Positions 1,187 to 63,656 of a DNA stretch of 64,000 nucleotides are shown piece by piece. The DNA is taken from sequence record NC_041919.1. One strand, written 5' to 3'. The position numbers were made by a program, and so were the translations under genes. The notes under the pieces were generated by a model, which had not been told where the DNA came from, ran no database searches, and was given only the letters and a program-made list of their open reading frames with translations. Positions within the stretch are counted from its first letter, which is position 1, and each line of letters begins with the position of its first letter. This stretch comes from Escherichia phage HP3.

Positions 1187-2152
1187 AAAACTGTAACTAT
1201 CAATAAGGGTATCTACTTCGGTAAAGAAATCTCTGGAACTTTTGAGCTCTTAGGTGAATGGTTCCCAGATAATGCTCCGGTAGATGCACAAGGAGATGGT
1301 AAAGTTTTTGTTGAAATTGACGGTAAGCGTCGCGGTGTTTGGGTTTACAAATCAGACATTTCATATGATGGTGTAAAAGTTGAAGAAGTTAAAGAATCGT
1401 ATGAAGATATGAAAACCCGCATTAATAAAAGATTTAATGTTATGGGAATGATGACGAATGGTATTATTAACGGAAACATTCGTTCATTAATTATCTCTGG
1501 TGCGGCGGGTATTGGTAAAACGTATTCTTTAGATAAAGCTTTAAATAAAGCAAATGATATTGGATACATTGAATATAAAAGCATTAATGGTAAAATCTCT
1601 GGTATTGGTCTTTATGAGCAGCTTTGGAATAATCGTGAAGAGAATTCTGTACTTTTGATTGATGATGTGGATGTTTTCTCTGATATGGACATTCTTAATC
1701 TTCTGAAAGCTGCTCTGGACACCGGAGAGACCCGCAAAGTCTGCTGGAGCACTGCATCTTCTTACTTAGAAGAAAAAGGCATTGAGCGTGAGTTTGAATT
1801 TAAAGGAACGATTGTTTTTATCACAAACGTTGACATTGACCGCGAATTAGACCGTGGTACTAAACTTGCTCCACATTTACAAGCATTAGTTTCCCGCTCG
1901 GTTTATTTAGATTTGGGTGTTCACACTAATGAAGAAATTATGGTCAGGGTTGAAGATGTTATTCTTTCAACTGACATGATGCAAAAACGCGGTCTTTCTG
2001 ATGAAGAAACTTATAAAGCATTATCATGGATGAAAGTCAATGTTAATCGTTTACGCAATGTTTCACTGCGTACTGCACTTTATCTTGCTGACTTTATTAT
2101 GACCGACAAAAACGGTTGGGAAGAAATCGCTGAGGTTACTCTTCTGAAATAA
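1184..2152 (+). CDS. P-loop NTPase (AAA-like), hypothetical
   Basis: ATG at 1184 with GGAG RBS (track ORF 1016 is an upstream extension through the promoter); Walker A GAAGIGKT and Walker B LLIDDVD. Confidence 0.7.
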   Translation: MKTVTINKGIYFGKEISGTFELLGEWFPDNAPVDAQGDGKVFVEIDGKRRGVWVYKSDISYDGVKVEEVKESYEDMKTRINKRFNVMGMMTNGIINGNIRSLIISGAAGIGKTYSLDKALNKANDIGYIEYKSINGKISGIGLYEQLWNNREENSVLLIDDVDVFSDMDILNLLKAALDTGETRKVCWSTASSYLEEKGIEREFEFKGTIVFITNVDIDRELDRGTKLAPHLQALVSRSVYLDLGVHTNEEIMVRVEDVILSTDMMQKRGLSDEETYKALSWMKVNVNRLRNVSLRTALYLADFIMTDKNGWEEIAEVTLLK

Positions 2153-2253
2153 TTCATAAGAGGCCTTCTATGACAAAAAGGCAGTTCAGAAATAGATTAT
2201 ATGGACTGCCATCAAAAAGATGATTAGAATTAAACTGGTAAATGGAGGTAGTG

Positions 2254-3199: not shown

Positions 3200-3607
3200 A
3201 TGAAACAGTTGATAATTAAAAGATTGAATTTATTGATATGTTGTTTATGTGTAGTAGTTGCATATGGTTATTACGCAATTAATGATTATATGCATTATAA
3301 AGATTATGATGTTACTGTAGTTAATACCTTTACAGGAACTCAAGGAAAGGGGTCTAGTTTATCGTTTATTGCTGTATATGAACTCAAAGACGGTTATAGA
3401 TTTAGCGAATATATTTCACCAGAGATGTATTCATCAATAGAAAAAGGCGATAATATTACTGTAAGTTTACGTCCTTTCGACGTAAAACAGACATTGTTTG
3501 ATAATATTGTTTGGTTCTTTGGAATGGTATTAGTTCAATCTGTGTGTGGTGCTTATATAGTCTGTTCCATCTTATTCTGTATATTTAGTAAAATTGAAAT
3601 TGAGTGA
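3200..3607 (+). CDS. hypothetical membrane protein (135 aa)
   Basis: ORF with hydrophobic N- and C-terminal segments. Confidence 0.5.
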   Translation: MKQLIIKRLNLLICCLCVVVAYGYYAINDYMHYKDYDVTVVNTFTGTQGKGSSLSFIAVYELKDGYRFSEYISPEMYSSIEKGDNITVSLRPFDVKQTLFDNIVWFFGMVLVQSVCGAYIVCSILFCIFSKIEIE

Positions 3608-17218: not shown

Positions 17219-18421
17219 ATGAAAGTATGTATTTTTATGGCTCGAGGTCTTGAAGGTTGTGGTGTAACAAAATTCTCACTCGAGCAACGTGATTGGTTTA
17301 TTAAGAATGGTCATGAAGTAACTTTGGTTTATGCTAAAGATAAATCATTTACTCGTACAAGTTCTCATGACCACAAATCATTTTCAATTCCAGTTATTTT
17401 AGCTAAAGAATACGATAAAGCACTTAAGCTGGTAAATGATTGTGATATTCTAATTATTAATTCTGTTCCTGCTACTTCCGTTCAAGAAGCCACGATTAAT
17501 AACTATAAAAAACTTTTAGATAATATTAAACCTTCTATTCGTGTTGTAGTTTATCAGCATGATCATTCTGTTCTTTCTTTGCGTCGAAATTTGGGATTAG
17601 AAGAAACTGTTCGTCGAGCTGATGTTATTTTTAGTCATTCTGATAATGGCGATTTTAATAAAGTTCTGATGAAAGAATGGTATCCAGAAACTGTTTCTCT
17701 GTTTGATGATATTGAAGAAGCACCAACAGTATATAATTTTCAGCCTCCTATGGATATTGCGAAAGTTCGATCAACCTACTGGAAAGATGTTTCTGAAATT
17801 AACATGAATATCAATCGTTGGATTGGTCGTACGACTACATGGAAAGGTTTTTACCAGATGTTTGATTTTCACGAAAAATTCTTAAAACCTGCTGGTAAAT
17901 CCACTGTAATGGAAGGTCTTGAACGTTCCCCTGCTTTTATTGCAATTAAGGAAAAAGGTATTCCGTATGAATATTACGGTAATCGTGAGATCGATAAAAT
18001 GAATCTCACGCCGAATCAACCGGCACAAATCCTAGATTGTTATATTAATAGTGAAATGCTTGAACGAATGAGTAAATCTGGCTTTGGATATCAGTTGAGT
18101 AAACTTAACCAGAAATACTTACAACGCTCACTAGAATATACTCATCTTGAATTAGGTGCTTGCGGTACAATTCCTGTTTTCTGGAAATCTACTGGCGAAA
18201 ATTTAAAATTCCGTGTTGATAATACTCCTTTGACCTCGCATGATAGCGGTATCATTTGGTTTGATGAAAATGACATGGAATCAACATTCGAGCGTATTAA
18301 AGAACTGTCATCTGACCGAGCTCTTTATGACCGTGAGCGAGAAAAAGCATATGAATTTTTGTATCAGCATCAAGATTCAAGCTTCTGCTTTAAAGAACAG
18401 TTTGACATTATTACAAAATAA
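17219..18421 (+). CDS. agt: DNA alpha-glucosyltransferase
   Basis: 400 aa; sequence (MKVCIFMARGLEGCGVTKFSLEQRDWFIKNGHEVTLVY...) matches remembered T4 alpha-gt. Confidence 0.9.
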   Translation: MKVCIFMARGLEGCGVTKFSLEQRDWFIKNGHEVTLVYAKDKSFTRTSSHDHKSFSIPVILAKEYDKALKLVNDCDILIINSVPATSVQEATINNYKKLLDNIKPSIRVVVYQHDHSVLSLRRNLGLEETVRRADVIFSHSDNGDFNKVLMKEWYPETVSLFDDIEEAPTVYNFQPPMDIAKVRSTYWKDVSEINMNINRWIGRTTTWKGFYQMFDFHEKFLKPAGKSTVMEGLERSPAFIAIKEKGIPYEYYGNREIDKMNLTPNQPAQILDCYINSEMLERMSKSGFGYQLSKLNQKYLQRSLEYTHLELGACGTIPVFWKSTGENLKFRVDNTPLTSHDSGIIWFDENDMESTFERIKELSSDRALYDREREKAYEFLYQHQDSSFCFKEQFDIITK

Positions 18422-34762: not shown

Positions 34763-35388
34763 TGCTTTATCAAATGCACAAGTGTAAAGACACGTACAAA
34801 TATAAAGGTGCCCAGTGTTATATCATTAATCGTGAAAACGCAGGTCCAGGCCATTCGCATCAATCACGGTTTGTATTCGTTAAAAATAATGAAATTATAG
34901 CAGTTGCTAATTATATGCTTGTGACCAATGATGTTAATCCGGTGCCTTTCACATATGACAATCTAATGGACTTGGCATATGATTATAATTGGTTTAATCA
35001 TGACAATTTAGTTCATATTGAAGGCGTAGGATTTGACATCTCTTATTCTAGTTATTCGTTGTGCCCTATGAGCCGAGCTCATAAAGAGCCTGAATATTTT
35101 TCATTTCGTCGGCGTGTAGACTTTAAACGCAGTACAGAGTATGTCGGTGGAATCTTTGTTAAAGATAATCGAATTACTCGCATTATTTATCCTTTGGGCT
35201 TTGGTCAAAAAGATATTGATGTTGATTTAGACTTTACTGAAAGCAGCATTAATCATATTGCTTCTGTGTATTTTGATATTGATCACAAAATTGTAATATG
35301 TGGATATGAATTACCATCCGAAAAACAGTCTAAAGTAAATGTTTCTATTGATGACCAAATTTTTAATGCTTTTATGAATAGAGGTTAA
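34762..35388 (+). CDS. hypothetical protein (208 aa)
   Basis: ORF with TAATG junction. Confidence 0.55.
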   Translation: MLYQMHKCKDTYKYKGAQCYIINRENAGPGHSHQSRFVFVKNNEIIAVANYMLVTNDVNPVPFTYDNLMDLAYDYNWFNHDNLVHIEGVGFDISYSSYSLCPMSRAHKEPEYFSFRRRVDFKRSTEYVGGIFVKDNRITRIIYPLGFGQKDIDVDLDFTESSINHIASVYFDIDHKIVICGYELPSEKQSKVNVSIDDQIFNAFMNRG

Positions 35389-35389
35389 T

Positions 35390-35554
35390 ATGAAAACATT
35401 TAAAGAATTTATTAAAGAAGATATGGTCGCTGGAGATTCAGGTGGTAATCCTGAAAATATCTCTACTGGAACAACATCAGGCGCTGTAGTAAATAAAGGT
35501 CCTGAACAGATTCCTAAAAAGAAAAAAGAGGAATCTAAAGAAAAAGAAGAGTAA
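35390..35554 (+). CDS. hypothetical small protein (54 aa)
   Basis: ATG 35390 after AGAGG; Lys/Glu-rich tail. Confidence 0.4.
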   Translation: MKTFKEFIKEDMVAGDSGGNPENISTGTTSGAVVNKGPEQIPKKKKEESKEKEE

Positions 35555-35556
35555 AA

Positions 35557-36585
35557 ATGTCATCAATACCTTGGATTGATAATGAGTTTGCGTATCGTGC
35601 ATTAGCTCATTTACCTAAATTCACACAAGTAAATAATAGTTCAACTTTTAAATTACGGTTTAGATGCCCAGTGTGTGGAGATTCAAAAACCGACCAAAAT
35701 AAAGCCCGTGGATGGTATTATGGTGATAATAATGAAGGAAATATTCATTGTTATAACTGTAACTATCATGCACCAATCGGAATATATTTAAAGGAGTTTG
35801 AACCTGATTTATATCGTGAGTATATCTTTGAAATAAGAAAAGAAAAAGGTAAAAGTCGTCCAGTAGAAAAACCTAAAGAACTTCCTAAACAACCTGAGAA
35901 GAAAATAATTAAATCTCTTCCGTCATGCGTTAGATTAGATAAACTGGCGGAAGACCATCCAATTATAAAATATGTAAAAGCTCGTTGTATTCCAAATGAT
36001 AAATGGAAATATCTTTGGTTTACAACCGAATGGCCTAAATTAGTTAATAGCATAGCACCAGGAACATACAAAAAGGAAATTTCTGAGCCTCGTCTTGTTA
36101 TTCCAATTTATAATGCTAATGGAAAAGCTGAGTCTTTTCAAGGACGTGCATTAAAGAAAGATGCTCCTCAAAAATATATCACCATTAAAGCTTATCCTGA
36201 GGCAACAAAAATATATGGAGTCGAACGAGTTAAAGATGGTGATGTATATGTTCTAGAAGGACCTATAGATTCACTTTTTATTGAAAATGGTATAGCTATT
36301 ACGGGTGGTCAATTAGACCTAGAAGTTGTTCCATTTAAAGATAGACGAGTGTGGGTTTTAGATAATGAACCTCGTCACCCTGACACTATCAAACGAATGA
36401 CTAAATTAGTTGATGCAGGAGAAAGAGTTATGTTTTGGGATAAATCTCCCTGGAAATCAAAAGATGTTAATGATATGATTAGAAAGGAAGGTGCAACCCC
36501 TGAACAAATTATGGAATATATGAAAAATAATATTGCCCAAGGGTTGATGGCTAAAATGCGGTTATCTAAATATGCCAAGATTTAA
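35557..36585 (+). CDS. 61: DNA primase gp61
   Basis: 342 aa; zinc ribbon CPVCGDS..CYNC; matches remembered T4 gp61 N-terminus. Confidence 0.95.
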   Translation: MSSIPWIDNEFAYRALAHLPKFTQVNNSSTFKLRFRCPVCGDSKTDQNKARGWYYGDNNEGNIHCYNCNYHAPIGIYLKEFEPDLYREYIFEIRKEKGKSRPVEKPKELPKQPEKKIIKSLPSCVRLDKLAEDHPIIKYVKARCIPNDKWKYLWFTTEWPKLVNSIAPGTYKKEISEPRLVIPIYNANGKAESFQGRALKKDAPQKYITIKAYPEATKIYGVERVKDGDVYVLEGPIDSLFIENGIAITGGQLDLEVVPFKDRRVWVLDNEPRHPDTIKRMTKLVDAGERVMFWDKSPWKSKDVNDMIRKEGATPEQIMEYMKNNIAQGLMAKMRLSKYAKI

Positions 36586-36782
36586 ATTAACCCAACTAAA
36601 GCAAATGCTAGATCTACGAATGTATCAAGAGTAATTACTGGAATATTAACACCATGAGCAATAGCAATTGGTGATAAAACAAAATTCCAGAGTAAAATTC
36701 CTACCATAGCAGAAATAGTAAAAGCTATACGTTTTTTATTACCTTTTATGGCATTAACAAGTGCCATTAATTTTTGTGCCAT
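36582..36782 (-). CDS. hypothetical small membrane protein (66 aa), convergent with gene 61
   Basis: ATG with strong AGGAGG RBS on - strand; two hydrophobic segments; no competing + strand ORF. Confidence 0.4.
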   Translation of the reverse strand: MAQKLMALVNAIKGNKKRIAFTISAMVGILLWNFVLSPIAIAHGVNIPVITLDTFVDLAFALVGLI

Positions 36783-36809
36783 ATGTCCTCCTTTAAATTA
36801 ATATTTATC

Positions 36810-36828
36810 ACAAATTTCATAAATTTGT
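36810..36828. repeat. perfect palindrome ACAAATTT-CAT-AAATTTGT
   Basis: 8-bp inverted repeat with 3-nt centre, abutting the -35 of the promoter at 36827. Confidence 0.9.
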
Positions 36829-36856
36829 TTACTTTCTCAGCTTGTTATGGTATTAT
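36827..36856 (+). promoter_or_regulatory. T4-type early promoter
   Basis: GTTTAC 36827-36832, TGGTATTAT -10 at 36851-36856. Confidence 0.65.
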
Positions 36857-36881
36857 AAAATAAATTGCTGAGGATGATATA

Positions 36882-38221
<1,340 letters not shown>

Positions 38222-62999: not shown

Positions 63000-63656
63000 T
63001 TATTTAGCCCTTCCTAATATTCTGGCCGCCTGAGCACATATTGATTCAAGGCGGTCATTACTTATATGATCATTTCTATACCAGTACATGGTTATCGTTC
63101 CAGCATAGATATTATCCAAATTAAAATATGGACAACTGTACATGTAGTTTATTTCGGGAGTAGGCTTTTTAGTTGGTAAAAAAGCAAATTTTGAGTCGGA
63201 ATAATAATGACGTCCATTTAAATGAACTGCATATTCATCCATAGTTTTATCAACAGGATATCCTCCAAGTGATTTTTCGCTTATTGTTGAAGGTAATTTT
63301 CCTTCGTATGCTATAATATCAACAAAATAGTTTAAGTTTTTAGGGCGGAAAGAATATACCGCACTAAAGTCTGCCTCAGATGATATATGAACTATCTGGA
63401 GTTGTTCCAGGGCGACAGATTCAAAGCGTGCATTTCTTTCCTTTTCAATAATTTCGCTGTATGTTTCATACTTTGATTGCTTATAGTACTCAAAGAAACT
63501 ATCTCCCCTATACCAAACAATCGCCATCATAAATAAAAGAATTACGACAGCTACCCGGGAAGCAAGAACATTCCCGGTAGCGTTATCTTTGAACAAGCGA
63601 TCTAGAACACCCAACAGAATATCAGAGGGCGAAAATGATATTCTAGGTGCTGCCAT
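63000..63656 (-). CDS. t: holin T
   Basis: 218 aa on - strand, single N-terminal transmembrane segment; size and sequence fit T4 holin; AAGGAGG RBS. Confidence 0.9.
   Translation of the reverse strand: MAAPRISFSPSDILLGVLDRLFKDNATGNVLASRVAVVILLFMMAIVWYRGDSFFEYYKQSKYETYSEIIEKERNARFESVALEQLQIVHISSEADFSAVYSFRPKNLNYFVDIIAYEGKLPSTISEKSLGGYPVDKTMDEYAVHLNGRHYYSDSKFAFLPTKKPTPEINYMYSCPYFNLDNIYAGTITMYWYRNDHISNDRLESICAQAARILGRAK

Follow-up and report, generated by a model that had tools for sequence, protein, structure and literature searches.

In the 64-kb window analysed here, a stretch of Escherichia phage HP3 (NC_041919.1), the gap that follows primase gene 61 raises two linked questions: is the 66-codon open reading frame (ORF) that runs there on the − strand a gene, and does the perfect palindrome upstream of it have a regulatory function? 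The initial annotation had noted that almost all genes in this DNA lie on the + strand, and this holds, since the long ORFs are nearly all + and the exceptions, including holin t (63000-63656), lie at the right end of the window. The − strand ORF, with its two hydrophobic segments and its AGGAGG ribosome-binding site, was likewise recovered from the ORF listing and from Kyte-Doolittle profiles. By its sequence the window is Tequatrovirus (T4-like), and the 1.2 kb around the small ORF and the palindrome are 100% identical to Escherichia phage HP3.2 and 99% identical to many other Tequatrovirus genomes. The local gene order on the + strand is sp, 61.2, 61.1, 61, the 186-aa ORF, dam and 56 (Table 1). 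The explanation that we develop below, and that we consider likely as a whole, is that the 99-bp gap at 36783-36881 consists of back-to-back divergent T4-type promoters, a late one directed to the − strand and an early one directed to the + strand.

Table 1. Features between gene 61 and dam, in window coordinates
Feature	Position	Strand	Remarks
Primase gene 61	35557..36585	+	Convergent partner of the small ORF
Terminator-like hairpin with T tail for the gene 61 transcript	36748..36777	+	Within the 5' codons of the small gene
Small gene, predicted membrane protein of 66 aa	36582..36782	−	ATG start; phrog_2024 / RB69ORF029w family
Shine-Dalgarno sequence AGGAGG of the small gene	36787-36792	−	4 nt before the ATG; AGGAGG/AGGAG in all lineages
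Late-promoter-like motif GATAAATA of the small gene	36809-36802	−	Putative late start ~36796
Perfect 8-3-8 palindrome ACAAATTT-CAT-AAATTTGT	36810-36828	unstranded	
Early (sigma-70) promoter core	36827..36856	+	−35 GTTTAC 36827-36832, TGG 36848-36850, −10 TATTAT 36851-36856; putative start ~36863
Hairpin UUCUCAGC...GCUGAGGA	36834..36874	+	Encloses the −10 and the transcription start; pairs the Shine-Dalgarno sequence of the 186-aa ORF
186-aa restriction-endonuclease-like ORF (phrog_8706)	36882..37442	+	Downstream of the early promoter; overlaps the dam start
dam	37442-38221	+	

The small ORF was matched by tblastn in 691 phage records, in 685 of them near full length, and every match lay under or beside the primase annotation. 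Approximately 500 of these records are Tequatrovirus, with 89-100% identity, and approximately 190 are Mosigvirus or Gaprivervirus, with 48-56% identity; T4-like phages of Klebsiella, Citrobacter and Enterobacter were added when a more divergent query was used. The gene neighbourhood is conserved as well. In RB69, VR25 and T2 the ORF sits beside primase and its other neighbour is either gene 56 or the restriction-endonuclease-like ORF with dam, in Karamvirus CkP1 and in a Jiaodavirus (where the ORF is labelled phrog_2024) the order is 56 (<-), small ORF (->), 61 (<-), and in two metagenomic lineages the ORF is likewise found beside primase. The window ORF itself matches phrog_2024 with E = 5.8e-31 over residues 3-66. 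Gaprivervirus VR25 carries a tandem paralog of the ORF, and the second copy in TH40 looks degraded. The family is a narrow one, as a profile search against 1.84 billion representative proteins returned only 6 matches, all of them from this same family.

Between genera the synonymous sites of the small ORF are saturated (pS 0.55-0.86), with pN of 0.23-0.39 and dN/dS of 0.05-0.5. Across the same genera the frame is 63-69 codons long, and 26 columns are invariant in an alignment of seven sequences, including AIKGNK, LWNF, P38, G44 and P48. Since cross-genus conservation, purifying selection and conserved synteny together go beyond what chance would produce, the small ORF is, on these comparative grounds, a real gene conserved in at least five genera of the Tevenvirinae, and the convergent small membrane-protein gene placed after primase by the initial annotation is therefore genuine.

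A different account of the same region would be that the − strand ORF is not translated, and that the DNA is kept because it supplies gene 61 with a 3' untranslated region or a terminator, or because it specifies a non-coding antisense RNA. The terminator-like hairpin that lies inside the ORF on the + strand speaks for this, as does the fact that the T4 curators left the ORF unannotated, and the sources searched contained no transcript, ribosome or protein support for the small gene. However, this hairpin is confined to Tequatrovirus, so it cannot explain why the region is conserved outside that genus. Moreover, invariant protein motifs and frame length have been kept in at least five genera despite saturation at synonymous sites, a strong Shine-Dalgarno sequence stands at the correct distance in every lineage, and Gaprivervirus has a paralog that is recognisable at the protein level, all of which makes an untranslated ORF very improbable.

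The small gene is already annotated in most relatives as hypothetical, and the T4 reference is without it. The T4 ortholog (MVQKLMAL...) occupies 17738-17938 on the + strand of NC_000866, within the 309-bp gap between 61 and dam; it is unannotated in both NC_000866.4 and AF158101.6, and no NCBI accession for the exact T4 protein was found in a collection of 15 billion proteins. The presence of the ORF in T4 had been overlooked in the initial annotation, as had the late-promoter core that adjoins the palindrome. Elsewhere members of the family are labelled "hypothetical protein", "putative membrane protein" or "Phage protein", with single records using "Holin" and "virion structural protein [STEP3]", names that we take as automatic or unsupported submitter labels. 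RB69ORF029w was listed as a novel ORF with a transmembrane segment at residues 21-41 by TMHMM (Nolan et al. 2006, PMC1524935 supplement). Literature searches on T4 Ribo-seq, unannotated ORFs, antisense RNA, RB69ORF029w and phrog_2024 found nothing relevant.

How might this gene be expressed? Late promoters of T4 carry the consensus TATAAATA at −13 to −6 (PMC1524935, PMC2988020) and are without a conserved upstream element (PMC2988020). In the published lists the least conserved position is the T at −13 (PMC1524935), and the 50 listed late sites comprise 32 perfect ones, 9 with A at −13 and a remainder that includes other single deviations (PMC2988020). The motif GATAAATA upstream of the small gene matches TATAAATA at 7 of 8 positions, with a perfect ATAAATA core and, at −13, a G that was unseen at the proven sites sampled. 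It stands 19 nt before the ATG, the corresponding distance being 12-22 nt in the other lineages and 12-35 nt at known late genes. The ATAAATA core is kept upstream of the small gene in 6 of 8 lineages, and the other two, L009 and Karamvirus CkP1, have one-mismatch cores (TATTAATA and ATTAAATA). The sequence flanking the core cannot be aligned between genera. As for the base at −13, it is G in Tequatrovirus (T4, T2), A in RB69 and L011, and C in VR25, TH40 and Jiaodavirus.

ATAAATA is strongly depleted in the window, where each strand has 4 occurrences although 23 +/- 5 would be expected. Apart from the copy at the small gene the − strand has three, and one of these precedes holin t, with the layout AATAAATATCCTTAAAAGGAGGGTCTATG, to be compared with GATAAATATTAATTTAAAGGAGGACATATG at the small gene. 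In the 3.7-3.8 kb loci of RB69, VR25, TH40, T2 and L011 the core upstream of the small gene is the only ATAAATA on its strand, and most of the occurrences on the opposite strand in the examined loci lie just upstream of soc. Since soc is a known late gene, these occurrences act as a positive control within the loci. A late region of T4 spanning 50 kb has NATAAATA 12-35 nt before 53, 9, 15, 18, 19, 20, 22, 24, 51, 26, 4 and inh; the same region contains three GATAAATA sites that are not obviously used. In the predictions of Nolan et al. (2006, PMC1524935) late promoters stood exclusively in front of orthologs of late T4 genes, and hence not at RB69ORF029w; none was found near RB69ORF029w in the coordinate files of that study.

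From the conservation of the core, the depletion of ATAAATA and a layout like that of known late genes we infer that the small gene probably has a gp55-type late promoter. On the − strand GATAAATA would then direct a start near 36796, and a leader of approximately 14 nt containing AGGAGG would lead into the 66-codon gene. Other promoter classes were also considered for this gene: the only − strand sigma-70 candidate (36901-36874, 9/12 matches) is at chance level, and no MotA box was seen by eye upstream of the gene.

The small gene ends inside the primase stop codon, the TAA codons of the two genes overlapping in TTAA at 36582-36585, and no − strand terminator is predicted downstream, in 35400-36582; the late RNA may consequently extend antisense into gene 61. 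This leads to a further possibility, namely that the late promoter mainly makes RNA antisense to primase and that the peptide is secondary. Stop codons that overlap or nearly abut are found in all lineages, leaving no room for a terminator between the two genes, and T4 has sites at which both strands are known to be transcribed, at different times (PMC2988020). An antisense function, however, needs neither a Shine-Dalgarno sequence nor an open frame, and the strong constraint seen at the protein level argues against a secondary peptide, so we regard this possibility as quite unlikely. The reading that we prefer is still that of a late promoter that serves a protein-coding gene.

On the + strand the picture is that of a canonical early promoter. 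At 36827 there is a GTTTAC −35 followed by a 17-18-nt spacer and by TGn with a TATTAT −10, which are the features that define the T4 early family, and the promoter is already annotated in phages JB75 and fPS-65. Promoters of this kind have been described as UP/−35/TGn/−10 promoters with extra consensus regions (Hinton 2010, PMC2988021), and the one in the window is predicted to serve the restriction-endonuclease-like ORF and dam. The hairpin at 36834..36874 has a free energy of −12.6 kcal/mol and a z score of −1.6, which alone is not significant, and it forms only in RNA that reads through from gene 61.

The perfect 8-3-8 palindrome described in the initial annotation is present in the sequence and, as had been claimed, abuts the −35 of this early promoter for the nuclease-like/dam pair, overlapping GTTTAC by 2 nt; on its other side it abuts the late-promoter motif. 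Given this position, its perfect 8-bp arms and its 3-bp spacer, it could be an operator to which a dimeric protein, of the phage or of the host, binds so as to regulate the early promoter, the divergent pair or both, and a repressor operator was indeed one of the functions that the initial annotation had suggested. Repeats of this type are, however, no more frequent than chance predicts: Markov-1 simulations give 1.9 +/- 1.4 perfect 8-3-8 inverted repeats for the window, and 2 were counted. Nor is there a second copy or near copy above chance in the 64 kb, where 5 related copies were found at up to 3 mismatches and 3.6 were expected.

The early-promoter family itself accounts for each arm base by base. 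The + strand of the window contains 17 sites that fit GTTTAC-N-TGnTAnnnT, and the consensus built from all 17, this site included, reads AAATATTTCACAAAGTTGT over the 19 positions that correspond to the palindrome; the palindrome matches 15 of these. Measured from the putative start, the palindrome spans approximately −54 to −36, which is the UP-element zone, and it would thus constitute the UP-element region of the early promoter. Self-complementarity is common in this block: AAATATTTCACAAAGTTGT itself is 5/8 self-complementary and other early promoters reach up to 6/8, with 9 of these 16 at 5 or 6. The symmetry can be traced to two sources, since the family consensus (A-tract, T-tract, CAC, AAAGTTGT) is half self-complementary and the tandem repeat ACAAATTTC/ATAAATTTG completes the rest. 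Judged by this match to the consensus, the palindrome belongs to the upstream region of an early promoter of the ordinary T4 kind, and an operator is unnecessary to explain it. The late promoter of the small gene does not need the palindrome either, as promoters of that class are without a conserved upstream element. A terminator or RNA hairpin was also considered and rejected for the palindrome, because its hairpin reaches only −3.2 to −3.7 kcal/mol, has one G-C pair and no G+C-rich stem, and is absent from the terminator scan.

Natural alleles point in the same direction. Among approximately 146 records with this intergenic region, approximately 108 match it at at least 95% identity over the full 116 nt and probably represent the long, palindrome-bearing allele, a frequency that would fit an operator. 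However, T2, Sf24 and S2_01 have an allele from which 9 bp (TATC followed by ATAAATTTG) are missing; they lack one arm and hence the palindrome, yet retain both flanking genes and both promoter cores. In this short allele the upstream block is partly the complement of the adjacent late-promoter motif. A third allele, GCAAATTTTACAAAATTTGT in G28 and HZ_ZJUN4, has 7/8 matching arms and a 4-nt loop, with no compensating change. T4 and Elenatom have lost 549 bp by deletion between direct repeats of 8 bp (ATCACAAA, 36806-36813 and 37355-37362), and with this stretch most of the palindrome, the early promoter and approximately 160 codons of the 186-aa ORF. This variation indicates that the symmetry is dispensable and, together with the chance frequency, the lack of recurrence and the match to the early consensus, leaves the operator with very little probability. 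As for the suggestion of a bidirectional element, the intergenic region is bidirectional in that it holds two divergent promoters, but for the palindrome itself as that element there is no support. The earlier interpretation of the locus is thus partly supported.

What, then, does the small gene encode? Residues 19-41 and 48-66 are hydrophobic (Kyte-Doolittle, 19-residue windows > 1.6), all five K/R residues fall within residues 4-18, and an AlphaFold2 model (mean pLDDT 74.6) places helices at 2-13, 16-42 and 52-62. The basic N-terminus, the modelled helices and the positive-inside rule together lead to a predicted helical hairpin in the inner membrane. In this prediction the helix at residues 2-13 is basic, all five K/R occurring by residue 18, and would face the cytoplasm. 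It would be followed by a first transmembrane segment, at approximately residues 19-41, that bears the invariant W-N, and by a short periplasmic loop (HGxNxP) that includes the conserved H-G together with a P. Another hydrophobic helix, in which acidic residues (D/E) are conserved, would then reach the C-terminus. The two-segment topology is uncertain, because this last hydrophobic stretch extends over only about 18 residues, two of them Asp. Searches with the 66-aa sequence or its profile found no relative in Pfam, NCBIfam, PADLOC or the PDB, the only hit being a hydrophobic-helix match to NqrE (E = 0.035). A Foldseek search of viral models recovered a family member and, besides noise, two weak matches of 63 aa with 25-27% identity, one from the T4-like Enterobacter phage CIP9 and the other without a name.

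A protein of 66 aa with two hydrophobic helices and probably late expression could contribute to lysis as a class II, pinholin-like holin or antiholin, and one database entry does name a family member 'Holin'. That name is nevertheless an unsupported submitter or automatic label, and neither Pfam holin families nor PHROG functions gave a match. The C-terminus (...DLAFALVGLI) is without a charged hydrophilic tail, and Met6 is not conserved, so there is no dual-start motif. In addition, the neighbours of the gene are primase and the restriction-endonuclease-like ORF with dam, or gene 56, not an endolysin/spanin cassette, and the same window already contains holin T. We therefore judge a holin to be unlikely.

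The product can instead be pictured as a late-made accessory inner-membrane protein, and our best guess is that it would act in the control of the envelope or of lysis timing, or in superinfection control. A more specific proposal, which we put forward only tentatively, is that this is an overlooked late gene convergent with primase, that its inner-membrane product of 63-69 aa has a specific late role, and that its transcript may run antisense into 61. Such a role would be, for example, lysis inhibition or superinfection control, or attachment to a membrane protein of the host by way of the invariant W-N / H-G / P / acidic motif.

The main value of these results is corrective, as a palindrome that looks regulatory turns out to be ordinary early-promoter sequence. 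They also have a consequence for T4 itself, whose reference annotations (NC_000866, AF158101) miss a conserved 66-codon gene that probably has its own late promoter. Hundreds of related genomes and omics studies take the T4 annotation as their template, so the missing gene is invisible to expression, proteomic and knock-down screens that use this annotation. For studies of late membrane events in T4 the small gene is a cheap candidate for deletion or tagging.

The locus can be compared with four known systems. One is the RB69ORF029w / phrog_2024 family, of which the window ORF is a full-length member with approximately 52% identity to RB69ORF029w; the two share the predicted transmembrane segment, the position and the orientation relative to primase, and there is no substantive difference between them. 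The class II holins and pinholins (such as phage 21 S68) resemble the small protein in size (approximately 65-70 aa), in having two hydrophobic helices, the second of which is short here, and in probable late expression, but the small protein lacks their charged C-terminal domain, conserved dual start and linkage to endolysin, and shows no sequence similarity to them.

Among promoters, the putative late site resembles the T4 late promoters (gp55/gp33/gp45) in its order of motif, Shine-Dalgarno sequence and ATG, which it shares with holin t in this window and with 26, 51, 4 and inh of T4. It differs from them at −13, where Tequatrovirus has G and other genera have A or C, and in two lineages the core has one mismatch. 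On the other strand, the predicted early promoter shares with the T4 early ('uber' sigma-70) promoters the −35, the TGn/−10, the spacer, the A/T-rich upstream block, the early strand and a position upstream of a Shine-Dalgarno sequence and gene, and it departs from them in that three substitutions from the consensus, or an imperfect 9-bp tandem repeat, give it a perfect 8-3-8 palindrome.

The small gene (a 66-aa ORF for a predicted membrane protein, convergent with primase gene 61) has a counterpart of 66 codons in T4, where it is accompanied by an SD and by GATAAATA. This copy lies in the 309-bp gap between genes 61 and dam, an interval over which the reference record contains no feature, and no NCBI accession was found for the exact T4 protein. 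In Gapriverviruses the gene is present as two tandem paralogs, the second of which adjoins primase and appears disrupted in TH40. More distant members, with 28-32% identity by tblastn, were found in Karamvirus CkP1 and a Jiaodavirus; as both retain the position and the motif W-N-[FY]...P...H-G...P...[DE], the family now spans at least five Tevenvirinae genera.

Features of the 61-dam region and its counterparts
Feature	Sequence record	Position	Strand	Sequence
Terminator-like hairpin	HP3	36748-36777	+	ATGGCATTAACAAGTGCCAT + TAATTTTTGT
Inverted repeat	HP3	36834-36841 and 36867-36874	+	UUCUCAGC...GCUGAGGA
Small gene, 66 codons	T4, NC_000866.4 (= locus L004)	17738-17938 (= 3239-3439)	+	
Small gene, tandem paralogs	Gaprivervirus VR25 (L006)	1795-1992 and 2001-2201		
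Small gene, distant member	Karamvirus CkP1 (L021)	1480-1689		
Small gene, distant member	Jiaodavirus (L022)	1501-1692		

The terminator-like hairpin begins the table; it lies 165 nt past the gene 61 stop, within the opening codons of the small gene, and is annotated as a terminator in fPS-65. It was also found in T4; it was not present in RB69 or in two further lineages carrying the small gene (L009 and L011), and the only hairpin in this region of VR25 was unrelated and lay at another place.

Directly upstream of dam, and overlapping its start, is the 186-aa ORF (36882-37442, +), for which weak matches to Type II restriction endonucleases were obtained (PADLOC REase_II, 9e-5; Pfam DpnII, 0.0045, and BanI, 0.009), with no PDB relative detected by sequence search. 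If this ORF is the remnant of a DpnII-like, GATC-specific nuclease, its place beside a GATC methylase would give T-even phages an R-M-like pair. A stretch of 549 bp, bordered in the window by the 8-bp direct repeat ATCACAAA (36806-36813 and 37355-37362), is missing from T4-type phages, and the corresponding T4 junction reads TATTTATCGCAAAACGTG. What remains of the ORF in T4 is roughly its final 20 codons, without the early promoter, so T4 dam must be transcribed from further upstream.

The spacing between this early promoter and the divergent late motif is altered by a 9-bp indel polymorphism (36810-36827 in the window versus the T2-type allele; tandem ACAAATTTC|ATAAATTTG). In the short allele, the late motif's complement (TATTTATC) also supplies the T-tract in the upstream block of the early promoter. 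Across the whole window and both strands the heptamer ATAAATA is depleted about six-fold (4 per strand versus 23 +/- 5 in Markov-1 simulations), which would fit counter-selection of stray late promoters. A further GATAAATA lies at 35191 (-), antisense within gene 61.2.

The inverted repeat, kept in all alleles without covariation, encloses the -10 element and start site of the early promoter. Its hairpin (-12.6 kcal/mol, z -1.6), in which the 186-aa ORF has its SD base-paired, would form only in RNA reading through from gene 61. The arrangement resembles a layout known from T4, in which a promoter lies inside an SD-masking hairpin.
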